Shown here in pieces: positions 1-29,974 of a DNA stretch of 64,000 nucleotides. Below the pieces are notes generated by a model. It was not told where the DNA came from. It searched no databases and saw only the letters and a program-made list of their open reading frames with translations. The stretch is from an uncultured bacterium. GTDB lineage: Bacteria; Bacillota; Clostridia; Christensenellales; UBA1242. Position numbers and translations under genes: made by a program. Each line of letters starts with the position of its first letter. The first letter of the stretch is position 1. The DNA is taken from the NCBI GenBank assembly GCA_949474265.1, contig CASXBC010000002.1, forward strand, positions 48,926 through 112,925, given 5' to 3'.

Positions 1-675
1 ATTTCAAAGCAATTTTTAGAAAATGGAGCCAAAGTTATTGCATTATATAAAGCAGATGATAAAAATGCAGAAAAGGCGGTTTCTATTTTATCAAAATTGG
101 GTGACTTTTCTGTGGTCAAATGTGATGTTACGGATGAAAAAGCTGTTGAAAGTGTTTTTGCATCAATTAAAAGTTTGGATTTCTTGATAAATTGTGCTGG
201 TATTAGCAATGAGGATTTTATTGAAAAGTTAACAGTTCAACAGATTAGAGAGACTATTGATGTAAACTTAATTGGAAAAATAATATGTTGTCGAAGTGCA
301 TTGTCTTTATTAAAAAAATCTAAGACGCCTGTAGTCATCAATATTGCTTCTAGATTTGCGGAACGTCCTTTGGCGACATGTATTCCATACACCACTAGTG
401 AAGCGGCAATTGTTATGCTGTCTAAAAATCTGGCGTTGGAATGGAAAGATTATAAAATAAGAGTCAATACAGTCAGTCCTTCATTGACTATAACTCCATT
501 AACACAAAAACTTTATACGAAGCAAGAAATTGAAGAGACTGCAAAGAGAAATCCATCACATAGATTAGGGCAAGTTGAAGATACTGCCAATGCGGTTTTA
601 TTTCTTTGTAGTGAGAAAGCAAGTTATATAAATGGCGAAAATCTAAATGTAAATGGCGGAATACTTTTGTTATAA
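1..675 (+). CDS. Short-chain dehydrogenase/reductase (FabG-like), 5' end outside window
   Basis: Frame 1 is open from nt 1 (ISKQFLENGAKVIALY...). SDR core NIASRF...YTTSEAAIVMLSKNLALEW...RVNTVSP. The listed ORF 97-675 is only the part after an internal start. Confidence 0.8.
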   Translation: MSKQFLENGAKVIALYKADDKNAEKAVSILSKLGDFSVVKCDVTDEKAVESVFASIKSLDFLINCAGISNEDFIEKLTVQQIRETIDVNLIGKIICCRSALSLLKKSKTPVVINIASRFAERPLATCIPYTTSEAAIVMLSKNLALEWKDYKIRVNTVSPSLTITPLTQKLYTKQEIEETAKRNPSHRLGQVEDTANAVLFLCSEKASYINGENLNVNGGILLL

Positions 676-679
676 AAAT

Positions 680-717
680 AAAAAACACACTATAGTCACT
701 CAATTTTGAAACTAGCG
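680..717. repeat. Island-1 left boundary half-sites AAAAAACACAC (680-690) and TTTGAAACTAGCG (705-717)
   Basis: Both motifs recur in inverted orientation at 8978-8990 and 9008-9019. Confidence 0.6.
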
Positions 718-730
718 GAATAATTAAAAG

Positions 731-758
731 GAACTCTATCGTTTTAGAGTTCTTTTTT
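731..758 (+). terminator. Hairpin GAACTCTA-N6-TAGAGTTC followed by T6; also T-rich on the other strand
   Basis: Perfect 8-bp stem read directly. T-run 753-758. Confidence 0.6.
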
Positions 759-788
759 GTGGCTTTATGCCGCGAAAGGTTCTTTACT

Positions 789-909
789 CAGGGCTTAAGA
801 ATGAAACATAATAAACAAAAGGCAAAAGAAAAAGCGAATGTAACTTCGCTTTAATAGCATAATGCTTGTTTCTTTGTCTTATTTGCCTAGATTCTCATTC
901 TAAGCCCTG
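789..909. repeat. ~120-nt long imperfect hairpin just downstream of recombinase 1
   Basis: CAGGGCTTAAGAATGA (789-804) pairs with TCATTCTAAGCCCTG (895-909) with one bulge. Inner AGGCAAA/TTTGCCT and small hairpins AGCGAA..TTCGCT and AGCAT..ATGCT. Confidence 0.55.
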
Positions 910-944
910 TGTCAAGAACACCGTGGAATAAATTAGCCACAAGT

Positions 945-2447
945 CTAAATAACCACATAAATATCATAAGTATTGGTTTTAGTTTTAATAATGCTACCTT
1001 TGAAGTGTCTTTCAGTTGTATAGGTTTCAGTAAAGACTTCTTGTATTATTGGCTCATTATTTGCTATTTGGTTTATCGCATAATTTATTCCTATCTCAAT
1101 CTTGTTATCATATACTTTAACAAACTTAATAAACAACTCAAAAGCCATATTTGGACATTGTTTCATTGTGTATTTGAAGAAATTTTGTATATCTTCTTTC
1201 GTCAGTTCGTATCTCTCTTTAGATTGCTCGATTATAACTTTCTCTTGTAAATCTTTCTTTGTTATTTCAAGTTCTTCTAATCTTGCCTTTGTAGTGTCGG
1301 TTATTATTCCTTTTTCAATTGCTGACATAATATTTGCAATTGAAGTGTTTACTTTTTGCAAGTCGCTTTTAAGTGCAGATAGTGATGTATTACTGTTTAC
1401 TCTTTTCTTATGCACTTCAAATATCTTTTCGGTCAATATTTCTAGGTTTTTATGTGTGTTAAATTGTTCTATTAAGAATTTGTCTATAACACCCTCAATA
1501 AAGTCCTTATACATTCTTTTGTTTGCACAATTGTCTTTCTTTGTGCCTATACAATTATAATATCTTAAGCTTTTACCATTAGAAGATATTGCAGATGTTG
1601 GATACATTTTCTTATTGCAATAACAACAAAAGATTTTATCTTTCAATCTAAATATTTCGTGATTATCTTTTCTTGAGCCATATCTTGTTTTGTTATATCT
1701 TTCCATTACTTTTTCATATAACTCATTTGATATAATTTGTGGATATATTTTGTCATATACTTTTCCGTTTTTTTTACAAATAACTGTGTAAATTTCTCGC
1801 TTTAAGATATATCGTATAACTTCTGGAATGAATTTTCTACCTTTGTTTGTAATGTTTTCTTCTTCAAGACTTTTAGATATTTGCAAGATTGTTTTACCAC
1901 TCGCATAGTCTTTATAAATTCTATTCAATATTTGCGATTCTTCTTCATTAGCAATTAACTTTTTGTTTTCTTTAATGTAGCCATAAGGCACTGAGCCAAT
2001 ACAATGTCCTTTCATTCGTGATTCGTGTAGTCCACGACTAACTTTTTGTGCTAGTTCTTCACTAAAGTATTGATTCATTCCCTCTAGTAGTGATTCAAGT
2101 AAAACTCCTTCTGGGGTTTCTGGAATATTCTCCATAGCAGATAATAGTTTAATACCATTGTCTTTTAAGTGCTTTCTATGAATTGCTGACTCGTATTTGT
2201 TTCTTGCAAATCTGTATAATTTGTAAACTAAAACATAGTTCCATTTTTTGTTGTTGCTATCTTTTAGCATTCTTTGAAAAGATTCTCTTTCATCCGTTGT
2301 TCCACTTATGGCTCGGTCAATGTATGAGTCCACGATTATTATGCCATTCCTTTTTGCATAATCCTCGCACACATGGACTTGTCCTTCAATGGATTGTTCT
2401 GTTTGGTTAGTGCTAGAGTATCTAGCGTAAATTACTGCTGTTTTCAT
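945..2447 (-). CDS. Large serine recombinase (resolvase/invertase N-domain plus recombinase and zinc-ribbon-like regions)
   Basis: 500 aa. N-terminus MKTAVIYARYSSTNQTEQSIEGQ has the catalytic Ser motif. Cys-rich CCYCN...YYNC region. RBS AAGGAG upstream. Paralogous to 28469-29974. Confidence 0.9.
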   Translation of the reverse strand: MKTAVIYARYSSTNQTEQSIEGQVHVCEDYAKRNGIIIVDSYIDRAISGTTDERESFQRMLKDSNNKKWNYVLVYKLYRFARNKYESAIHRKHLKDNGIKLLSAMENIPETPEGVLLESLLEGMNQYFSEELAQKVSRGLHESRMKGHCIGSVPYGYIKENKKLIANEEESQILNRIYKDYASGKTILQISKSLEEENITNKGRKFIPEVIRYILKREIYTVICKKNGKVYDKIYPQIISNELYEKVMERYNKTRYGSRKDNHEIFRLKDKIFCCYCNKKMYPTSAISSNGKSLRYYNCIGTKKDNCANKRMYKDFIEGVIDKFLIEQFNTHKNLEILTEKIFEVHKKRVNSNTSLSALKSDLQKVNTSIANIMSAIEKGIITDTTKARLEELEITKKDLQEKVIIEQSKERYELTKEDIQNFFKYTMKQCPNMAFELFIKFVKVYDNKIEIGINYAINQIANNEPIIQEVFTETYTTERHFKGSIIKTKTNTYDIYVVI

Positions 2448-2482
2448 TTTCTTTTTTCTCCTTTTATATATTTTATATTTGT

Positions 2483-2623
2483 CTTTCGACGGAGCGAAAA
2501 TAAACGAAAACGGATTATAATCTTTAACTTTGAAATATATATTTTTTAGTCAAGGTTTGCGACAAGCAATATACTTTAACCTTGGCTAAAAAGAGTTTTC
2601 GTTTACGCTCCACAAGGCGAAAG
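2483..2623. repeat. ~140-nt nested inverted repeat upstream of recombinase 1
   Basis: CTTTCG..GGAGCG..AAACGAAAAC (2483-2511) versus GTTTTCGTTT..CGCTCC..CGAAAG (2595-2623). Inner TTTTTAGTCAAGGTT (2543-2557) versus AACCTTGGCTAAAAA (2578-2592). Confidence 0.55.
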
Positions 2624-2734
2624 ATAAATACTCTCGTATCAAGACAAGCACACGCCTGAGTGCCAAATTATTTAAAATTTTATAAAATAAGTCAACGATT
2701 GCTTGCCAAAATTACATCGTTTATGTTATATTAA

Positions 2735-2752
2735 AAGTAAAGAAAGTAAAGA
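2735..2752 (+). promoter_or_regulatory. Tandem 9-bp direct repeat AAGTAAAGA x2 between putative promoter and RBS of the AbrB-like/hsdM operon
   Basis: Read directly. Lies about 20 nt upstream of the ATG at 2773. Candidate operator; function inferred. Confidence 0.35.
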
Positions 2753-2772
2753 ATTTTTAAGGAGCAAAAAAA

Positions 2773-2982
2773 ATGATAAAGCAAGCGAAGTTATCAAATA
2801 AATGTCAAATAACAGTTCCGAAAGAGGTTAGGAAATTGTTGGAGATTGATAAGGGAGATGATGTCGTTTTTTATATTGAAGATAATGAGGTAAAACTAAC
2901 CAGTATTAAAAACATAAATCTAAAACTAAAGAACCCAAAAAAGAAAACAACAATGAAAAAAGGAGAAAATAACAATGGATAA
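2773..2982 (+). CDS. AbrB/MazE/SpoVT-family DNA-binding protein
   Basis: 69 aa. SpoVT-AbrB-like N-terminus KCQITVPKEVRKLLEIDKGDDVVFYIEDNEVKL. RBS AAGGAG. Overlaps the hsdM start by 8 nt. Confidence 0.75.
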   Translation: MIKQAKLSNKCQITVPKEVRKLLEIDKGDDVVFYIEDNEVKLTSIKNINLKLKNPKKKTTMKKGENNNG

Positions 2983-4702
2983 ACAAAAGATTGATAATAA
3001 GGCAAGTTTGATATGGAGCATTGCAGATAAACTTCAAGGAGATTATAAGCCTCATGAATATGGAGATGTTATTCTTCCATTTACTGTGCTTAAAAGGTTT
3101 GATTGCGTCCTTGCCGAAACTAAAGATAAGGTTCTAAAAGTGGCATCTGAATATCCTGTTATTACTCCACCTGTTGACAAACTTCTTAAAAGTGTAGCAA
3201 AACAACAAATATACAATGTAAGCAAATATAATTTTAAAAACTTGCTTGACGACCCTGATAATATAAAAATTAATTTTAAAAAATATATTGCGGGTTTCTC
3301 TGAAGAAGTAAAGGATATCTTAAGTAAAGAGCATGGTTTTGAGTTTGACAGACAAATTGAAAAACTAGACAATGCAAGTTTGTTATATTTGATAATCGCT
3401 GAATTTAATACCGAAAAAGCAGATTTACATCCCAACAAAGTTAGCGATATCGAAATGGGATATATTTTTGAGGAAGTAATTAGAAAATTCAGCGAAACAT
3501 ATCAAGCTGACGCTGGAGAATTTTACACGCCAAGAGAAATTATTGATTTAATGGTCAATTTGCTTTTAAATAATGAAGAATTGAGTGAGAATAACAAGGT
3601 TATACAAATATACGACGGAGCGTGTGGCACAGGTGGAATGTTGTCTATCGCCTACGAACGAATCAAGGAACTAAACAGTACAAATGCTGTTTTTACAAAT
3701 GGTCAAGAAATCAACCCTCAAACTTATGCCATTTGTAAAAGTGATATGTTACTTAAAGGCGGTAAAAACTCGTTAATTAAATTTGGTAGCACACTTTCAA
3801 ATGACCAATTTCCTGAAGAACAATTTGATTATATTATTATGAATCCGCCATTCGGCAGAGAATGGAAAAAAGACAAAGAAGAAGTTGAAAAAGAACATAA
3901 GCGTGGTTTTGCTGGCAGATTTGGTGCAGGATTACCTGCAGTTAGTGATAGCCAAATGTTGTTTTTGCAAAATGCTATTTCAAAAATGAAACCAAGCGGA
4001 AGCAGGGTTGCAATAATACATAATGGTTCGCCTTTATTTTCTGGTGATGCTGGTAGTGGACCAAGTGAAATAAGAAAGTATATTATTGAAAATGATTTAC
4101 TTGAAGCCATCATTCAACTACCTAATAACATTTTTTATAATACTGGAATTACTACTTATATTTGGTTGTTGTCCAATAAAAAAACAAAGGAAAGAGCTGG
4201 TAAAATTCAACTTATAAAAGCGACTGAAATGTATATAAAACGTCGCAAAGTTTTAGGAGAAAAACGCAACGATATTTCAAAAAGTCAAATAGAGCAAATT
4301 GCTAAAATATATGATGACTTTAAAGAAACTGAGAACAGCAAAATATTCGACAATGATGCTTTTAAATATTTGAAAGTAGTAGTTGAAACGCCACTTAAAG
4401 ATGAGCAAGGTAATATAATCTTAGATAAAAAAGGCAAAAAACAGCCAAATGCAAGTTTACGAGATACAGAAATTATACCAGTCAAAGATAATATTGAAGA
4501 GTTTATGCAAAAAAAAGTTTATCCTTTTAACCCTGAGGCCTATGTAGATGAGGGTAAAACAAAAATAGGATATGAAATCCCTTTTGTAAAATTATTTTAC
4601 AAGTTTGTTCCACCAAAACCGTCAAAAGACATCTTTGCTGAAATAAAAGAGATGGAAAAACAAGAAGCCATATTAATGAAGGAGTTATTTAGTAATGATT
4701 AA
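2975..4702 (+). CDS. hsdM: Type I restriction-modification system, DNA methyltransferase subunit M
   Basis: 575 aa. N6-adenine MTase motifs YDGACGTGGML and IIMNPPFG. Followed by the S and R subunits with overlapping junctions. Confidence 0.92.
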   Translation: MDKQKIDNKASLIWSIADKLQGDYKPHEYGDVILPFTVLKRFDCVLAETKDKVLKVASEYPVITPPVDKLLKSVAKQQIYNVSKYNFKNLLDDPDNIKINFKKYIAGFSEEVKDILSKEHGFEFDRQIEKLDNASLLYLIIAEFNTEKADLHPNKVSDIEMGYIFEEVIRKFSETYQADAGEFYTPREIIDLMVNLLLNNEELSENNKVIQIYDGACGTGGMLSIAYERIKELNSTNAVFTNGQEINPQTYAICKSDMLLKGGKNSLIKFGSTLSNDQFPEEQFDYIIMNPPFGREWKKDKEEVEKEHKRGFAGRFGAGLPAVSDSQMLFLQNAISKMKPSGSRVAIIHNGSPLFSGDAGSGPSEIRKYIIENDLLEAIIQLPNNIFYNTGITTYIWLLSNKKTKERAGKIQLIKATEMYIKRRKVLGEKRNDISKSQIEQIAKIYDDFKETENSKIFDNDAFKYLKVVVETPLKDEQGNIILDKKGKKQPNASLRDTEIIPVKDNIEEFMQKKVYPFNPEAYVDEGKTKIGYEIPFVKLFYKFVPPKPSKDIFAEIKEMEKQEAILMKELFSND

Positions 4703-5972
4703 AAATATTTTGGAAAATCCTTCAAATATAACTATGTGTAGAGTTAAAGATTTATTTTTTATATCAAAAGAAAAAGCTCATCAAGAAAATCCTGTTGTTT
4801 TGAGCTTGGCAAGAGATGCTATTAAAATAAGGGATATTTCTAACAATGAGGGGCAACTCGCCGAAAGTTATGAAAATTATAATCCAGTGAAAATTGGCGA
4901 TTTATTGTTAAACCCTATGGACTTATATAGTGGTGCAAATTGCAATGTATCTTTAGTAGAAGGCGTTATAAGTCCTGCATACATTAATTTAAGAAAAAAA
5001 TATGAAGATATAAATCCTAAGTTTTATGATTACTACTTTAAAATACAATACTGGACAATGAATATGTTTGCTCATGGAAAAGGAGTTTCCTTTGATAATA
5101 GATGGACAATAAACACAGAAGGGATTTTAAATTTTGACATTCCCCATAGCACAATAGATTATCAAAATAAAACTGTAGAAAAAATTGATAAAAAATGTTT
5201 TCAAATTGATGACCTTATAAAACTACAAGAAAAAGAAATTGAAAAGTTGAAAGAATATAAACAATCTGTTATAAGCGAAGTTGTAACAAAGGGGTTAAAT
5301 CCTAATCCAAAAATGAAAGATAGCGGTATTGAATGGATAGGCGAAATTCCTGCAGATTGGAGTGTTAAGCGATTAAAAAATATAGGTAGCTTTTCTAGTG
5401 GAATTTCAAATAAGACCCCCGAAGACTTTGGTTTTGGTTATCCTTTTGTTAATTATAAAAATATATACAAAAACTACGAAATAGATCAGAATGTTGAAGA
5501 AAAAGTAAATTCAACAGAAGAAGATAGAAAAAAATATAATATTAAATATGGCGATTTGTTTTTTACAGGATCTTCAGAGACAATAGATGAACTTGGTTTT
5601 TCAAGCGTTGCAATGAAAGATTTTCCAAATGCTGTCTGGAATGGCTTTTGTATTAGAATGAGACCTTATTCATTTGAGAATTATAATCCTAAATATTTTC
5701 TTTATTTGACTAGGAGTAATATTTGCAGAAATTATTTGGGAGCAAATGACAATTCCATAACAAGAGCAAATTTAAGTCAATCTCGCTTAGGCAGTCTTCC
5801 TATTGTTTTTCCAAATATTGAAAAACAAAATATAAGCGTGCAATATTTAGACAAAGCGTGCGAATATATAGATAATTTAATAAAAGTAAAACAACTAAAG
5901 ATTCAAAAATTACAAGATTATAAAAAATCTTTAATATATGAATATGTAACAGGTAAAAAGAGGTGCGTTTAA
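4695..5972 (+). CDS. hsdS: Type I restriction-modification system, specificity subunit S
   Basis: 425 aa. Two variable halves separated by conserved helical spacers (LQEKEIEKLKEYKQSVISEVVTKG and KVKQLKIQKLQDYKKSLIYEYVTG). Position between M and R. Confidence 0.88.
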   Translation: MIKNILENPSNITMCRVKDLFFISKEKAHQENPVVLSLARDAIKIRDISNNEGQLAESYENYNPVKIGDLLLNPMDLYSGANCNVSLVEGVISPAYINLRKKYEDINPKFYDYYFKIQYWTMNMFAHGKGVSFDNRWTINTEGILNFDIPHSTIDYQNKTVEKIDKKCFQIDDLIKLQEKEIEKLKEYKQSVISEVVTKGLNPNPKMKDSGIEWIGEIPADWSVKRLKNIGSFSSGISNKTPEDFGFGYPFVNYKNIYKNYEIDQNVEEKVNSTEEDRKKYNIKYGDLFFTGSSETIDELGFSSVAMKDFPNAVWNGFCIRMRPYSFENYNPKYFLYLTRSNICRNYLGANDNSITRANLSQSRLGSLPIVFPNIEKQNISVQYLDKACEYIDNLIKVKQLKIQKLQDYKKSLIYEYVTGKKRCV

Positions 5973-8923
5973 TGGAAACGAAAGAAAAGAATTATGAAGC
6001 GTACATTGAAAGATATTTAACCACTACAGATGGCTATATAAAAGATAATGGCTCTGGTTATGATAATAAAATTGGAATAATTACACCTGATTTATTATCT
6101 TTTATTAAAACCACTCAACCTAAAGAATGGAAAAGGGTTCAGGATAGTCAAGGCTCTCAAGTAGAGATTTATTTCATTGATAGATTGAAGAAAAATATTG
6201 ATGAAAACGGACTTTTATATGTTTTACGCAATGGCATTAAGCTGAATGGAGTTACAATAAAACTTATTTTCTTTAAACCTGAAAGTGGAATCAATCCTGA
6301 TAGTATCAAGTTGTATAATCAAAACATTTGCAAGCTTGTTCGTCAATTGCACTATTCATATCTAAATAACAATAGTCTTGATACAGTGCTTTTTATAAAT
6401 GGATTTCCAATCGTAACAATTGAATTGAAAAATGAGTTTACTGGGCAGACCTGCCAAGATGCAATACGACAATATAAATATGATAGAGACCCAAATGAAG
6501 TAATCTTTCAATTTAACAAGAGGTCTTTAGTGCATTTCGCAGTTGATTTACAAGAAGTATATATGACAACAAAATTGAATGGCACATCAACAAAATTTTT
6601 GCCATTTAACCAAGGCTCAAATGGTGCTGGAAAAGTTGGTGGTAAAGGTAATCCTATAAATGAAAATGGTTTTGCAACTGCTTATTTGTGGGAGAATGTT
6701 TTAAATAAAGATAGTTTTTTTGAAATATTAAATAAATATATACAACTGGAAGTTAAGAAAAACAAAAAAACTGGCGAGATTAAAAAGACTTTGATTTTCC
6801 CTAGATATCATCAACTGGATGTTGTAAGAAAATTAATAGCAGATGCAAAAGCAAATGGTGCTGGAAAAAATTATTTAATTCAGCATAGTGCAGGAAGTGG
6901 AAAAAGTAATAGTATTGCATGGCTTGCTTATCGTCTTGCAACTTTACATGATAGTAATGACAATATAATTTTTGATAGTGTTGTAGTTATTACAGATAGA
7001 AGAGTTCTTGACCAACAACTTCAAGATAACATCTATCAATTTGAACATACTCTAGGCTTTATAGAAAAAATTGATAAGAACAAAACCAGCCAAGATTTAT
7101 TGAAAGCAATAAACGCAGGTAAAAAAATAATAATTACAACCTTACAGAAATTCCCTATTATTTATAAAGATATTGAATCTCAAAACAAACATTTTGCGGT
7201 TATAATTGATGAGGCACATTCTTCTCAGACTGGTAACAGTGCAAAGAAACTTAAAGCTGGTTTAGGGGATTTGGAAGAAGCAATCAAAATTGAGAACGAA
7301 CTGGAAGAAAAAACCTCTGAAGATGAAGATAAATTACTTTTTGAGCTTGCAAGTCAGGGAAAACAAAAAAATCTATCATTCTTTGCTTTTACTGCAACTC
7401 CAAAAGCCAAAACTCTTCAAATATTTGGAACAAAAACTGAAGAAGGTAAATTTGTTCCCTTCCATATATATTCAATGCAACAGGCAATTGAAGAAGGCTT
7501 TATTTTAGATGTTTTGCAAAATTATATGACCTATAGTACATTTTATAAGTTGGTTAAAAAGACAAATGAAGACCCTGAATTTGATGCTAGCAAAGGTATT
7601 AAAGAGCTTGTAAGGTTTGAAACTTTACATCCAACCAACATATCTCAAAAAACAGCAATTATTATAGAGCAATTTTTAAACACAACCACCAACAAAATAA
7701 ACGGAAAAGCAAAAGCTATGGTTGTTACTCCATCGAGATTGCATGCAGTAAAGTATGTAAATGCTTTTAAAGAATATATCAAAAAGATATCCATGGAAGA
7801 TAAAATTAGGGTGCTTGTTGCCTTTTCTGGCGAAGTTTTTGACCCTGACACAAAAGAGACTTATACGGAGCCAGGGATAAATAAAATAAGTGAAAGTCAA
7901 TTGCCTGAAGCTTTTGAAGATGAGTATAATGTATTAATAGTTGCTGAAAAATATCAAACAGGATTTGACCAACCATTGCTCCATACAATGTTTGTTGATA
8001 AAAAACTTTCTGGAATAAAGGCAGTCCAGACTCTTTCACGACTTAATAGAATTTGTGAAGGTAAAACTGATACTTTCGTTTTGGACTTTGTAAATAAAGC
8101 TGAAGATATACAAAGTTCATTTCAAGACTTTTACCAAGGTACTGTTTTGGCGGAAGGTTTTGATATTAATAATGTTTATGATATTTATGGCAGATTGGAG
8201 GCATATAAATTGGCTGATATAAATGACATAAATGGATTCGCTGAATTATATTATTCAAATTCTGAAGATATGGGTAAATTAAGTTCTTATTTGTATAGAG
8301 CAAAAGAAAAATATGTTGTTCTTGAAAAGAATGATAAACACGAATTTAAATCTATTATGCAAGCATTTTTAAGAAATTATAACTTTGTTACTCAAGTAAC
8401 TCGTATGAATGATAAAGAACTGCAATCAGCATATATTTATTATAAATATCTAAATCAGTTCCTTCCAAAAGACAACGCTAAATCAGTAGATGTTAAAGAT
8501 TTAGTTGACTTAGAGTTCTACAAGCTTGAAAAGAAGTTTGAAGGAAGCATAACTCTTACAAAAGAACAAGCCGAAATTGAGCCTCCTACTGGAAATATCG
8601 GCAAAAAAGGTGAAACGGCAAAGAGTAAATTGAGCGAAATTATCAATAAAATTAATCAAAAGTATCAGACAAAGTTCACGAATATGGATAAAGTCTTTGA
8701 GCAAATCGAAAACGATTATTTAAATGATGATAGAATGAAAGCATTTGCTAAAAACAACGAAGAAAAAGCATTTAAAAAAGTTTATGATATCGAGTTTGAA
8801 AACAAAGCAATACAAAGATATGAGCAAAACAGCGAATTGTTTAAGATTTTATTTACTGACGAAGAATTTATGAATGATGTTAAATCGGCTTTGTTTAAAG
8901 CAATTTATAGTAAATTAAAATAA
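5972..8923 (+). CDS. hsdR: Type I restriction enzyme, endonuclease/helicase subunit R
   Basis: About 983 aa. Walker A QHSAGSGKSN, DEAH box VIIDEAHSSQ, FAFTATPK. The ATG at 5972 overlaps the hsdS stop (TAATG); the track ORF begins at a GTG at 5963. Confidence 0.92.
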   Translation: METKEKNYEAYIERYLTTTDGYIKDNGSGYDNKIGIITPDLLSFIKTTQPKEWKRVQDSQGSQVEIYFIDRLKKNIDENGLLYVLRNGIKLNGVTIKLIFFKPESGINPDSIKLYNQNICKLVRQLHYSYLNNNSLDTVLFINGFPIVTIELKNEFTGQTCQDAIRQYKYDRDPNEVIFQFNKRSLVHFAVDLQEVYMTTKLNGTSTKFLPFNQGSNGAGKVGGKGNPINENGFATAYLWENVLNKDSFFEILNKYIQLEVKKNKKTGEIKKTLIFPRYHQLDVVRKLIADAKANGAGKNYLIQHSAGSGKSNSIAWLAYRLATLHDSNDNIIFDSVVVITDRRVLDQQLQDNIYQFEHTLGFIEKIDKNKTSQDLLKAINAGKKIIITTLQKFPIIYKDIESQNKHFAVIIDEAHSSQTGNSAKKLKAGLGDLEEAIKIENELEEKTSEDEDKLLFELASQGKQKNLSFFAFTATPKAKTLQIFGTKTEEGKFVPFHIYSMQQAIEEGFILDVLQNYMTYSTFYKLVKKTNEDPEFDASKGIKELVRFETLHPTNISQKTAIIIEQFLNTTTNKINGKAKAMVVTPSRLHAVKYVNAFKEYIKKISMEDKIRVLVAFSGEVFDPDTKETYTEPGINKISESQLPEAFEDEYNVLIVAEKYQTGFDQPLLHTMFVDKKLSGIKAVQTLSRLNRICEGKTDTFVLDFVNKAEDIQSSFQDFYQGTVLAEGFDINNVYDIYGRLEAYKLADINDINGFAELYYSNSEDMGKLSSYLYRAKEKYVVLEKNDKHEFKSIMQAFLRNYNFVTQVTRMNDKELQSAYIYYKYLNQFLPKDNAKSVDVKDLVDLEFYKLEKKFEGSITLTKEQAEIEPPTGNIGKKGETAKSKLSEIINKINQKYQTKFTNMDKVFEQIENDYLNDDRMKAFAKNNEEKAFKKVYDIEFENKAIQRYEQNSELFKILFTDEEFMNDVKSALFKAIYSKLK

Positions 8924-8945
8924 TCTCAATAAATCTTTTAATAAA

Positions 8946-8977
8946 AAAGACATACTAAATAAATAGTATGTCTTTTT
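8946..8977 (+). terminator. Rho-independent terminator after hsdR
   Basis: AGACATACT-N8-AGTATGTCT followed by TTTTT. Confidence 0.75.
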
Positions 8978-9019
8978 CGCTAGTTTCAAAGTTTATAACC
9001 TATTAAAGTGTGTTTTTTT
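8978..9019. repeat. Island-1 right boundary half-sites CGCTAGTTTCAAA (8978-8990) and GTGTGTTTTTTT (9008-9019)
   Basis: Reverse complements of the motifs at 705-717 and 680-690. Confidence 0.6.
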
Positions 9020-9063
9020 GTGATATGCCCAATTTGAAGAGGATAGGCAATACACGATTACAA

Positions 9064-9591
9064 TTATTTTCTAATTGTGTTGTAAAGAGTGCAAGCAGAA
9101 GCTCCGCCAGCACAAAGCAAGTTCAAAACAAGTCCAGCGATTGAAGCACTTGCAGGTGAAACTTTTGCAATGGCAGCAAATGGTTCGTTTGTTGCTGAAA
9201 CAAGGTTTGTGCAAGCAACAATGTTAAGCACTGCCAAAACAAAAACAATAACTGCAGAAACAACGCTCAACCACTTTACAAGTTTTGCAACCTTTTCGTT
9301 TGACAAAACGCCAAAATCACAAAGAAGTGAAAGAATGGCACTTATAATCAAAACGCTTGCAAAAATTACAAGAAGAAGCACGATAACTGCACTGAAAGTT
9401 TGCTCTGATGTTGGATTTGGTGTGCTGAAATCCAAGAAGTCATATCCAGATTTTGTCATTGCAGGAACGCCTATAGCTGAAACTGCTTTAACTGCCAAAT
9501 ATGGAAGTGCTAAGAATCCAAGAATCAAAGCTCCAAAAACTGCAGTAAGTCCGTGTAAAACTGTTTTTGTAAGATTTTCAGGTCTTTTCAT
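9064..9591 (-). CDS. Polytopic membrane protein, function unknown
   Basis: 175 aa with about 4 hydrophobic segments. Strong RBS AAAGGAGAGAGAAAATG on the minus strand. The equally long plus-strand ORF 9089-9619 has no RBS. Confidence 0.7.
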   Translation of the reverse strand: MKRPENLTKTVLHGLTAVFGALILGFLALPYLAVKAVSAIGVPAMTKSGYDFLDFSTPNPTSEQTFSAVIVLLLVIFASVLIISAILSLLCDFGVLSNEKVAKLVKWLSVVSAVIVFVLAVLNIVACTNLVSATNEPFAAIAKVSPASASIAGLVLNLLCAGGASACTLYNTIRK

Positions 9592-9775
9592 TTTCTCTCT
9601 CCTTTTGTTAAGATATTAAGAGAATAATCCAAAAATGCAAAGTTGTAAAACTTTATATAATATTTATTTTAAAATGTTATAAAATGGTGGGTTTTGTAAC
9701 ACTTTTGCTTAGAAAATCCAATTTTTTATTTATATAATATATAATTTAATTTTAGATTTGTGCTATAATGGTTAC

Positions 9776-10579
9776 ATGAAAATTGTTACATATAATATAA
9801 ATGGCATAAGAGCAAGTGCAAAATTGGGGCTTATAGATTGGCTTGCTGATTTTGATGCTGATGTATATTGCTTGCAAGAAGTTAGATGCAATGAAACTTT
9901 GGCAAGAGAAATAGTTTTTCCAAGTGAGAGCCAATTGAGTTTTTTTGATGTTCAACAAAAGGAAAATAAATTGAGTGAGTTTGATGCAATTTTTAATTGC
10001 GGAGAAAAAGCTGGTTACGCTGGCACTTTGATATTGACAAAGTCAAAACCTGACAAAGTGCTTTTTGATATGGGGCAGTTTTGGAAAGATGATGAGGGGC
10101 GAACAACAACAGTTATTTTGGGTAATGTAGCTATTGTTGATGCTTATATCCCAAATGGAAATAGTAGATTGGATTTTAAAATGCAATATTTGGATTCTCT
10201 TGTCAAATATTTGGCAAGTTTAAAAGAAAAATATCATGTTGTTTGTGTTGGAGATTTCAACATAGCTCACAATGAGATTGACCTTACAAATCCAAAGGAA
10301 TGTAAAAACAAGTCAGTGTTTTTACCTATTGAAAGAGAGGCTTTTCAAAACTTGTTGGATGTGGGATTGACAGATTGCTTTAGATTTTGCAATCCAGAGG
10401 CGGTAAAGTATTCTTGGAGAAGTTATCGTTCTCGTTATGACACGACTTATAACAGTTGGAAATATCGAATAGACTATATTCTTTCAAGTGACGGTCTGAA
10501 GGGGAAAATCAAGAGTTGTGATATTTTGGATTTGTCCTATAGTGACCATTTGCCTGTTGTTGCAGAAATAGAGGTGTGA
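9776..10579 (+). CDS. xth: Exodeoxyribonuclease III (AP endonuclease)
   Basis: MKIVTYNINGIRA...CLQEVR...GDFNIAH...SDHLPV; typical EEP/Xth motifs. Confidence 0.9.
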   Translation: MKIVTYNINGIRASAKLGLIDWLADFDADVYCLQEVRCNETLAREIVFPSESQLSFFDVQQKENKLSEFDAIFNCGEKAGYAGTLILTKSKPDKVLFDMGQFWKDDEGRTTTVILGNVAIVDAYIPNGNSRLDFKMQYLDSLVKYLASLKEKYHVVCVGDFNIAHNEIDLTNPKECKNKSVFLPIEREAFQNLLDVGLTDCFRFCNPEAVKYSWRSYRSRYDTTYNSWKYRIDYILSSDGLKGKIKSCDILDLSYSDHLPVVAEIEV

Positions 10580-28468: not shown

Positions 28469-29974
28469 TTAGCGTTCTAAAGTTATGGTGGAGCATTGTG
28501 TTTTGTGTAAGAACTCGTTAACAGCTTGCTCTCTATGTTCCTTTGCCTGTTTAAAGGTAAACTTTTTATTTCTTTCAAACAAGTCAAAGTAAATGTTTAT
28601 GTAGTCATCAAATACATAAATGCTGTTTACAAAAGTATTTATGATGGTCTCTTTAAACTTTTCTGTCTTTGGCTGGTCAATGAAAACTTGCAAATATTCA
28701 ACAATGTCTTGCTTTGAGTGATGTATGCTTAAGGCTATTTTTATTTTTTTAACCTGCTCGCTGTAAGTTGCTTGTTGCTCAGAAAGGTCATCTGCTTGCT
28801 TGTTAAGACGTGAAATAATATTGTCGTTTGTGCTTTTCATTATTTGCTGAGTTATTTTGTCAAACTTCTTCTCAATCTCTTCAAGTTGCTTTTCAAGAGA
28901 TACAAGTTCAGAATTGTTTATTTCATTTTTATAAGACTCTAAAATTCCATCTGCAATTGTGTTGATGTTGTCTTTTTGCAAAACCATATCAAAAATAAAA
29001 TTGAAAACATCTTCTTCAAGTTGTTGCTTGTTTTCATTTGACTTGTTGCAGGTATGTTTCTTATATCTCTCTTGACATGAATAGTAAGAGTGAGTTTTGC
29101 CTGTGTGGCTTGTTCCTGAAGTGCCAACCATGCTTGCTCCACAATGACCACAATACAGCTTGCCAGAAAGTAAAAACTTCTCCTTTGCTTTGTTTGAAAA
29201 TCTTTTGTTCTTTTTTAACATATCTTGTACCTTTTCAAATGTTACTTTATCAATTATCGCTGGATAGTAGTCGTTGTTCTCTACAAAAGAGTTTTTATAA
29301 AGACCAATATATTTTTGATTTGATAAATTGTATTGAAGACTATGAAGAGTAAATTTTTGCCCCTTATTTGTCCGATAGCCCATTTCATTGAGTTGTTTTA
29401 CAATTTCATTCATGCTTGTGCCTTTAGCATATTCACTAAAGAAAAATCTTACTGCAGGAGCCTGTTCTTCGTTGATTTTGATTTTCTTGTCAACTACCTT
29501 ATAGCCATATAAAATATTGCCACCTGTAAAATTGCCCTTTAATATATTCTCTCTCATTCCTCTTGTGACTTTTTGGCTCAAGTCTTTTGAATACATCTCA
29601 GCAAACATCTCAAGCAAGCCTTCCATCAAGACACCTTCTGGGGTGTTGCTTATCACTTCAGTTGCTGAAATCACTCTCACACCGTTTTGCTGAAGCTTGT
29701 GTTTGTATATTGCGTTGTCATACTTACTTCTGCTAAATCTATCCAGCTTGTAGACCAAAACATATTCAAATTGCTTTTTAGCACTATCAGCAATCATTCT
29801 TTGAAACTCTGGGCGGTCGGCATTTGTGCCTGTCATGGCACGGTCAATGTATTCATGAATGATTTTATATCCTTTTCTTTCGGCATATTCACGACACACA
29901 CGCAGTTGACCTTCAATGCTTTGTTCTGTTTGTGCTGATGAAGAATACCTGGCATAAATAACAATATTTGTCAT
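28469..29974 (-). CDS. Large serine recombinase (integrase of island 2)
   Basis: 501 aa. MTNIVIYARYSSSAQTEQSIEGQ, canonical YKLDRFSRSKY, Cys-rich LYCGHCG...YYSC zinc-ribbon-like region. Confidence 0.92.
   Translation of the reverse strand: MTNIVIYARYSSSAQTEQSIEGQLRVCREYAERKGYKIIHEYIDRAMTGTNADRPEFQRMIADSAKKQFEYVLVYKLDRFSRSKYDNAIYKHKLQQNGVRVISATEVISNTPEGVLMEGLLEMFAEMYSKDLSQKVTRGMRENILKGNFTGGNILYGYKVVDKKIKINEEQAPAVRFFFSEYAKGTSMNEIVKQLNEMGYRTNKGQKFTLHSLQYNLSNQKYIGLYKNSFVENNDYYPAIIDKVTFEKVQDMLKKNKRFSNKAKEKFLLSGKLYCGHCGASMVGTSGTSHTGKTHSYYSCQERYKKHTCNKSNENKQQLEEDVFNFIFDMVLQKDNINTIADGILESYKNEINNSELVSLEKQLEEIEKKFDKITQQIMKSTNDNIISRLNKQADDLSEQQATYSEQVKKIKIALSIHHSKQDIVEYLQVFIDQPKTEKFKETIINTFVNSIYVFDDYINIYFDLFERNKKFTFKQAKEHREQAVNEFLHKTQCSTITLER

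Follow-up and report, generated by a model that had tools for sequence, protein, structure and literature searches.

The element, its ends and its empty site

The stretch of DNA analyzed here, referred to as the window, comprises 64,000 nucleotides of contig CASXBC010000002.1 (positions 48,926 to 112,925, forward strand) from a mouse-gut Clostridia bacterium. Near its left end lies an element of 8,310 bp (694-9003), which encodes a 500-aa large serine recombinase (LSR), a 69-aa AbrB/MazE-like protein and the hsdM, hsdS and hsdR genes of a type I restriction-modification (R-M) system. On the left, the element is bordered by the 3′ part of a short-chain dehydrogenase/reductase (SDR) gene (1-675, + strand; Pfam adh_short_C2, E=1.3e-48). 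On the right lies a convergent ORF for a 175-aa hydrophobic protein (9064-9591, - strand), for which a Pfam search gave no match. With the SDR gene ending at 675 and the hydrophobic ORF at 9064, the flanks agree with the initial annotation, which had placed the island between convergent SDR and membrane-protein genes. Sequence comparisons support the reading of the restriction cassette as a mobile element that encodes both a serine recombinase and a complete type I R-M system and is situated inside the loop of a two-way terminator.

Four flank motifs had been assigned to the ends of the island, and all four were read in the sequence: AAAAAACACAC (680-690) and TTTGAAACTAGCG (705-717) on the left, 14 nt apart, and CGCTAGTTTCAAA (8978-8990) and GTGTGTTTTTTT (9008-9019) on the right, 17 nt apart. 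Allowing up to one mismatch, the inner 13-nt motif TTTGAAACTAGCG occurs in the 64-kb window solely at 705-717 (+) and 8978-8990 (-), against 0.14 copies expected, and two or more copies were present in 0 of 100 shuffled windows. Elsewhere in the 1.11-Mb genome there is a single further exact copy, at one end of a cassette on contig C11. Two matches with one mismatch were obtained; one is the other end of the C11 cassette, and the other falls within coding sequence on contig C24 and was rejected as an element end, being a chance match. The outer motif alone (AAAAACACAC) is less specific, with three copies in the window against 0.6 expected.

The four ends of the window element and the C11 cassette were compared. 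At every junction, the dinucleotide AT parts the arm from the unrelated flank. In the window, attL reads ...AAAAAACACACT[AT]-P′, with the AT at 692-693 exactly between the B half-site (680-691) and the 24-nt P′ arm AGTCACTCAATTTTGAAACTAGCG (694-717, + strand). The right junction, attR, reads P-[AT]TAAAGTGTGTTTTTTT; the P arm CGCTAGTTTCAAAGTTTATAACCT (8978-9001, + strand) was located by sequence reading, motif search and the arm pairs of related cassettes, and the AT at 9002-9003 by sequence reading and empty-site contigs. The attP is symmetric, with 24+2+24 bp and a total of 50 bp: CGCTAGTTTCAAAGTTTATAACCT[AT]AGTCACTCAATTTTGAAACTAGCG. The P′ arms of the window element and the C11 cassette are identical at 24/24 positions and the likeness ends beyond the arm, the interiors being unrelated; the P arms are identical at 19/24 positions. 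The 24+2+24 geometry of an attP of about 50 bp with an imperfect dyad around a 2-bp crossover, together with the B/P′ and P/B′ hybrids, was found in the window element, in the C11 cassette and in a related element in genome G349. The attL (B-O-P′) and attR (P-O-B′) pattern of a large serine recombinase, proposed earlier for the island, is thus seen as B-[AT]-P′ and P-[AT]-B′ with equal 24-nt arms. The unequal spacers (14 and 17 nt) reflect a crossover displaced by 1.5 bp from the hairpin centre; the site itself is not irregular.

Logan contigs of mouse-gut and faecal metagenomes were aligned to the region. A 195-nt contig from X4 joins 562-689 to 9000-9066 with 0 mismatches, running from the B half-site straight into the right flank. 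Four letters at the joint, CTAT, fit either side and include the AT core, and the joined sequence, AAAAAACACA[CTAT]TAAAGTGTGTTTTTTT, is the predicted attB. A 773-nt contig from X7, belonging to a more divergent strain, has the same junction with one extra A. The empty-site string for the locus is AAAAAACACACTATTAAAGTGTG. Other mouse-gut samples therefore contain, as an actual unoccupied site, the outer-half junction that had been predicted from the window. No duplication of the target outside the core was seen at these sites (X4, X7) or at the empty sites of the C11 cassette (X3, X13).

The closest species-level relative with the locus, G017, has SDR DNA 79% identical to that of the window and lacks the island. 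It retains two intact hairpins of the predicted type, AAAAACACGCC..GGTGTGTTTTTT and AAAAACACACCG..CGGTGTGTTTTTT, and a homologue of the 175-aa ORF follows an intact hairpin. In G017 (L002, G017:C4, minus strand ~1510-430) the SDR and membrane genes are separated by a 2-hydroxyacid-dehydrogenase-like gene with an A-run/T-run hairpin on either side, the two hairpins being near-identical; the window's species has a 2-Hacid_dh gene upstream of the SDR gene instead (L193).

The rebuilt attB, AAAAAACACACT[AT]TAAAGTGTGTTTTTTT, folds into a 12-bp stem followed by a U-run on both strands (-14.6 and -13.1 kcal/mol). The B half-site supplies the left arm of this hairpin (A-run and CACACT), while the B′ half-site (9004-9019), delimited by sequence, empty-site contigs and folding, holds the remainder of the loop and the right arm (AGTGTG and T-run). 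On the folding model, attB resembles an intrinsic terminator that would act in both directions where two genes converge, and the fold on both strands supports the bidirectional terminator that had been put forward as the insertion target.

Related cassettes and their targets

The genome contains two elements with these arms, in the window and on contig C11, and the window LSR is the sole LSR of its family there. The C11 cassette is ~2.5 kb long (about L025:2067-4583; C11:11066-13582) and lies between tRNA-Trp and a DUF378 gene. It has the same att arms and AT core as the window element and carries no recombinase gene, as expected of a non-autonomous cassette bounded by att sites. Its cargo is a radical-SAM gene and an ATP-grasp gene broken at a C-run (~L025:4025-4035). 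In X3 and X13 the cassette is absent and the empty site reads, in L025, ...ACACTCTAT + TG + GGTTTTTTTT. Run X3 has the R-M island and lacks the C11 cassette; therefore, the two elements vary independently. The window LSR probably also serves the C11 cassette in trans.

An exact scan for TAGTCA-N6-TTTGAAACTAGYR, over one genome per prokaryote species, gave at least 119 loci with the motif AGTCA-N6-TTTGAAACTAG of the P′ arm; the counts over 119 loci and 154 arms that follow are among the matches listed. The window element is a member of a large and apparently undescribed family of cassettes landing in terminator loops. All but one of the loci listed are in gut metagenome-assembled genomes (MAGs) labelled as uncultured Clostridia, Eubacteriales, Christensenella, Ca. 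Onthoplasma or Ca. Caccovivens, and the record titles suggest that mouse, human, chicken, goat, deer and buffalo are among the animal hosts. An A5+ run is present within 22 nt outside the arm in 134 of the 154 arms (87%), compared with 10.7% at random positions, and outside the arms A is most frequent (0.93-0.95) at a distance of 11-12 nt from the core. The core dinucleotide at the 119 P′ arms is TT in 113, AT in five and CT in one. It had been considered that the same inverted motifs might occur widely as generic terminator sequence. The inner motifs are widespread, but in every case they mark element ends that adjoin varied half-hairpins derived from the target; they are conserved termini of an element family and not generic terminator sequence.

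The attB sites were rebuilt from 44 pairs of arms whose outer flanks match and which lie 0.77-8.3 kb apart. An A-tract/T-tract hairpin surrounds the crossover in 44/44 rebuilt sites, and the core is unpaired in the loop in 43/44. The median folding energy of these targets is -11.8 kcal/mol, with a median z of -5.4.

Most members of the family do not carry a recombinase. An LSR gene is present in 17 of the 119 loci, in each case with its 3′ end ~90-170 nt away from the P′ arm; the other 102 have no LSR match in the locus DNA and are small cassettes with varied cargo. The 'minimal' cassette of the initial annotation is thus a relative term, since smaller recombinase-less cassettes of the same family exist. 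The cargo encoded by 54 cassette ORFs includes C5 methylases, a HaeIII-type endonuclease, SDRs, GNATs, metallo-beta-lactamase-fold proteins, NUDIX, an ABC ATPase, APH and HNH. The direct evidence that recombinase-less cassettes move is a cassette that is 98.6% identical over 1,348 nt in two MAGs, CALVML010000029 (L156:96-1519) and CASFHD010000010 (L172:432-1761); judging from these two sequences, the same cassette, with ORFs of 266 and 100 aa, has come to lie in unrelated flanks and in different target hairpins.

The LSRs of L072, L079, L096, L124 and L192 are 93-97% identical to one another and are flanked by five different hairpins. Multi-targeting is thus displayed by this sister clade, while the window's own 74%-identity lineage is represented by two sites in one genome. 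The window LSR is 74% identical to LSRs adjoining the same arm motif elsewhere. The closest of these, in G349, is part of an element of 6 kb that has these arm motifs, TT as its core and a cargo of DegV and a Rep_ORF2/G2P-like gene; this element splits the hairpin AAAAAAGCCC-GATT-GGGCTTTTTT. The Rep_ORF2/G2P-like protein, of rolling-circle type, is encoded at L072:12864-13745 (G349) just upstream of the LSR, and no such gene is present in the window element. For a 54%-identity LSR in G409 the ends were not recognised with the arm motif.

Two further observations concern the arms. The AT-core cassette at L162:1637-3070 has both ends of the P′ type (AGTCA...), as a palindromic core would allow. 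Arm motifs also lie within ~130 nt of a contig end in L080, L087, L091, L102, L106, L111, L118, L129, L149, L153, L164, L189 and others. MAG assemblies are commonly interrupted at such arm sites, in line with sites that are repeated or differ in occupancy.

Genes, control regions and hairpin module of the element

The LSR (945-2447, - strand) has the Pfam domains Resolvase (PF00239), Recombinase (PF07508) and Zn_ribbon_recom (PF13408), i.e. a resolvase catalytic N-terminus followed by the large C-terminal recombinase and zinc-ribbon domains of large serine recombinases. The catalytic motif YARYSS is present at the N-terminus, and the Cys cluster of the ribbon was also identified; DUF4368 gave no Pfam match at E<=0.001. 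The best relative of solved structure is the TP901-1 catalytic domain (E=1.9e-13), and look-ups in plasmids returned distant relatives alone (<=36% identity). A second large serine recombinase is encoded in the window at ~28598-29968 (-); it is 37% identical to the LSR at 945-2447 and unrelated to the terminator-loop family.

Downstream of a divergent control region (2448-2772) lie the AbrB/MazE-fold (SpoVT-AbrB) gene and the R-M operon, all on the + strand. The AbrB/MazE-like protein (69 aa, 2773-2982) matched Pfam MazE_antitoxin (E=2.2e-10) and had no PADLOC match. The end of its gene overlaps the start of hsdM by 8 nt, and the protein is a possible controller of the R-M operon. The methyltransferase gene hsdM (2975-4702) was identified with Pfam N6_Mtase and HsdM_N and with PADLOC MTase_I (E=1.6e-236). 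The specificity subunit gene hsdS (4695-5972) matched PADLOC Specificity_I (E=2e-79) over its full length (residues 26-422 aligned), and the restriction subunit gene hsdR (5963-8923) matched Pfam HSDR_N, SWI2_SNF2, ResIII and T1R_D3-like and PADLOC REase_I. HsdM, full-length-matched HsdS and HsdR are thus all intact and adjacent, as in a complete type I R-M system. The gene content first described for the cargo (recombinase, AbrB-type regulator and hsdMSR) is borne out by ORFs and Pfam and, for hsdMSR, by PADLOC.

Promoter-like sites, recognised by consensus matches only, diverge within the control region, one directed towards the LSR (2695-2667, -) and the other towards abrB-hsdMSR (2703-2732, +). 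The region also contains a long imperfect hairpin (2476-2630) with arms of 36 nt that are 72% complementary (region z=-5.6). Located between the LSR start and its promoter-like site, this hairpin would sit in the LSR 5′ leader. Almost none of the island was covered in metatranscriptome contigs X20, X28 and X29.

Each end of the element carries a terminator of its own. Inside attL, a hairpin at 731-760 (GAACTCTA-loop-TAGAGTTC, then TTTTTT) was read as a terminator on the + strand; the terminator scan lists the hairpin on the minus strand. It faces the SDR gene, and from its position it apparently stands in for the split host terminator for the SDR transcript. At the other end, a two-way terminator (AAAAAGACATACTA / TAGTATGTCTTTTT, 8944-8976; sequence read) ends 1 nt before the P arm. 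The same layout, with an own hairpin after the arm, was seen in the other family members examined. Because an own terminator lies inside each arm, insertion splits the host terminator yet provides replacements.

Between the P′-side terminator and the LSR gene lies a long imperfect hairpin module (758-940; minimum free energy -77 kcal/mol, z=-8.2). No Rfam match was obtained at E<=1 over window positions 1-10000. Of the 123 P′ arms scanned, 26 have the module at a fixed distance (+75 to +243), mostly in recombinase-less cassettes, and it was detected in 12 of the 61 genomes searched, all of the same genus (both counts include the window's own); it also adjoins 43%-identical LSRs. Its consensus structure has 36 pairs, six of them with compensatory change, and in recombinase-less cassettes the common P′-side block reaches ~400 nt. 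The long hairpin contains a conserved TTGACA-N18-CATAAT/CAATAT. A role of the module as cargo promoter was considered and rejected on the orientation of the cargo, which is co-directional in eight cases vs opposite in seven. As a working idea, the module may serve as a single-strand origin, or as some other site that works in cis together with Rep proteins from larger relatives. In X13 the 170-180-nt module appears as a 178-nt contig at ~5x the depth of the flanks, and in X7 position 933 runs head to tail into 764, the joints containing 11-12 variable letters (AGCCTTTGGCGG, AGCCGTAGGCGG, AGCGAATGCGG). These joints may represent tandem copies or a closed rod.

Mechanism of insertion, alternatives and relation to known systems

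The element at 694-9003 is very probably an integrative element that was inserted into the terminator loop by its own multi-targeting LSR, via conservative site-specific recombination of a 50-bp attP, and that constitutes a mobile defence unit. In the proposed mechanism, the 50-bp attP would be the donor, and the two-way terminator where the SDR and membrane-protein genes converge would offer its loop as the target attB. The LSR would read the A-run/T-run symmetry of terminators on double-stranded DNA, and for this reason many terminators could be targets. Owing to the own terminator inside each end, host transcripts would still stop and the cargo would be insulated. Since the cargo is a complete type I R-M operon headed by an AbrB-like protein, the element would act as a mobile defence unit. 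The anatomy, the empty sites, the family, the variety of its targets and the movement of recombinase-less cassettes are seen directly. We infer that the window LSR would catalyze the recombination and could act in trans, that excision may take place at the present day, and what role the AbrB-like protein would have.

Several observations weigh against this interpretation. A circle or free attP (go-back joint from 9003 to 692; GTTTATAACCT-AT-AGTCACTCAAT) was looked for in eight metagenome contig sets (X1, X2, X3, X4, X7, X12, X13 and X17) and not found, the contigs being products of an assembler, which drops rare forms; nor was the family-wide attP pattern found in IMG/VR or JGI metagenome contigs. 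The circular form that had been suggested as a check was therefore not seen. Neither a recombination directionality factor nor a gene for Rep or transfer was found in the window element; its sole small ORF is that of the AbrB-like protein, fused to the R-M operon, and no known directionality-factor family was recognised. In exact-protein look-ups, the same insertion was seen in 7/7 contigs with the identical LSR and in 10/10 with the identical flank protein, and the window element was at a second site in none of them. The search for the cassette at other loci and hosts, likewise suggested at the outset, thus yielded the wider arm family, but the identical LSR and flank protein gave the same context alone. 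In characterised serine integrases, asymmetric cores fix the polarity of recombination. With AT, both elements of this genome have a palindromic core, which is unusual for a serine integrase and would not be expected to fix the orientation on its own. The target of the C11 cassette is a weak hairpin (-4.1 kcal/mol, z=-1.7), and the 44 rebuilt pairs had been pre-filtered on flank similarity, a filter passed by 33 of the 35 exact-arm pairs. The term 'self-mobile' used in the initial annotation therefore holds in part: integration by the own LSR is well supported, but circle, directionality factor, replication or transfer gene and second site were not found.

These gaps would suit a fixed relic, i.e. 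a single LSR insertion in the ancestor of a species-level lineage that is now immobile, with the empty sites representing lineages that never received the element and the LSR gene retained although it no longer excises. The single site in every assembly with the identical LSR or flank protein, the missing circle or attP junction in metagenome contigs, IMG/VR and JGI, the missing directionality factor and the lack of a Rep gene, though the relative examined has one, all speak for it. However, neither the LSR ORF nor the two arms nor any part of the R-M operon is disrupted. The flanks of the X4 empty site are identical over 195 nt, which suggests recent gain or loss, and the presence or absence of another cassette that shares the rare AT core is independent. 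A relic is unlikely, although it is the alternative with the strongest claim.

The remaining alternatives fare far worse. As the ends are inverted repeats, they could be the termini of a transposon whose transposase is encoded at another locus, with the recombinase merely a resolvase or passenger. This is very improbable: there is no target-site duplication beyond the core, the 24+2+24 geometry fits the attP of an LSR, the LSR adjoins the P′ arm in all 17 LSR-bearing loci listed, and the large C-terminal recombinase and zinc-ribbon domains do not correspond to a small-resolvase build. It is similarly hard to credit that the recombinase is a phase-variation enzyme of the R-M system, acting by hsdS shuffling or promoter inversion, and not an integrase. 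Serine and tyrosine recombinases near type I hsdS are frequent drivers of specificity switching, which lends the idea some weight. Here, however, there is one hsdS with no silent copy and no inverted repeat inside it; the strong inverted repeats are limited to the element ends and two hairpins, and the same LSR family adjoins unrelated cargo. That the motifs are chance or generic terminators, with the R-M operon ordinary chromosomal DNA between two separate terminators, can practically be dismissed, for although A-run/T-run hairpins are the usual terminators in the present low-GC genome, the empty-site contigs already refute it, and it is contradicted by the inner-motif statistics and by arms kept beside unrelated cargo in at least 119 loci.

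Insertion by the own LSR was then compared with known systems. Durrant et al. 2022 (PMC10083194) define multi-targeting LSRs as LSRs with >=90% identity in more than three different target sites; such LSRs, e.g. Cp36, use many sites that share a loose motif, a TT core and A/T-rich sides, and DUF4368 is frequent but not obligatory in their clade (PMC10083194). The present family is similar in having five >=93% identical LSRs in five targets. It differs in that the targets are recognisable as A-run/T-run terminator loops, the word 'terminator' being absent from PMC10083194, and the window element differs further in its AT core and in that DUF4368 was not detected. The phage serine integrases of phiC31, Bxb1, A118/LI and TP901-1 share with the window LSR the domain build, an attP of ~50 bp, a 2-bp crossover, hybrid attL and attR and the lack of target duplication. 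Unlike the window element, they have a single specific attB, usually intragenic, and a known directionality factor, whereas the window element has non-phage cargo, many targets and no directionality factor identified.

Among elements of Clostridia, Tn4451/Tn4453 (TnpX) and Tn5397 (TndX) are likewise small, moved by an LSR and relaxed in target choice, with a dinucleotide core; they form a circular intermediate. The window LSR is nevertheless very distant from them (TnpX fragment, E=1.5e-4), and the core and arms differ. With a core of AT/TT in place of GA and no mob gene in Pfam searches, the present elements do not belong to this group. Terminator loops are not known as targets of Tn4451/Tn4453 and Tn5397, and literature searches gave no such report.

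The recombinase-less cassettes are reminiscent of the pseudo-SCC elements of the staphylococcal cassette chromosome (SCC/SCCmec) and of the cis-mobilizable elements (CIMEs) beside integrative and conjugative elements, which are also bounded by att sites of a larger relative's recombinase. SCC elements also carry type I R-M genes. Whereas SCC elements and CIMEs accumulate at one site (rlmH, or a tRNA or gene end), the family cassettes are scattered singly over many terminators. Integrons, too, have small cassettes that mostly hold one or two genes, differ widely in cargo and pass from genome to genome. In contrast to integrons, there is no IntI tyrosine recombinase, attI, attC or array here; the cassettes are dispersed, each in its own terminator, and bring their own terminators instead of relying on one platform promoter. 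Mobile R-M units, present or absent between otherwise collinear genomes, were reportedly described by Furuta, Abe and Kobayashi in 2010. The window element resembles these in its presence and absence, and differs in that the mover and its sites are identified. By analogy, then, the mechanism appears to be that of a serine integrase and the target behaviour that of a multi-targeting LSR, and the recombinase-less cassettes resemble pseudo-SCC elements and CIMEs.

No description of this system was found in the literature on serine recombinases searched with terminator, hairpin or cassette. Terminator loops as a target class, replacement terminators carried by the element and the scale of the dispersed recombinase-less cassettes were all undescribed in the literature searched. 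A broader picture can be offered tentatively, as a possibility that we hold to be somewhat less probable than not. Gut Christensenellales-like Clostridia may run a dispersed serine-recombinase cassette system, in which any A-run/T-run terminator loop would be a landing pad and the replacement terminators would make insertion cost-free. Most cassettes would be moved in trans by LSRs borne by a minority of elements, the R-M island of the window among them, and the P′-side module would be a cis single-strand origin or transfer site by which Rep-bearing relatives replicate or export excised circles.

The arm sites explain why many MAG contigs end at the motif. One attP vs at least 44 attB sites is a natural set for studying how an LSR reads a degenerate symmetric target, and the LSR is a candidate enzyme for DNA insertion at terminator-like sites. 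Landing in a terminator loop together with spare terminators would be a harmless insertion strategy, a description of which was not found for serine recombinases. These results offer a concrete, testable mechanism for the movement of a complete defence system, and of other accessory genes, in poorly known small-genome gut bacteria.

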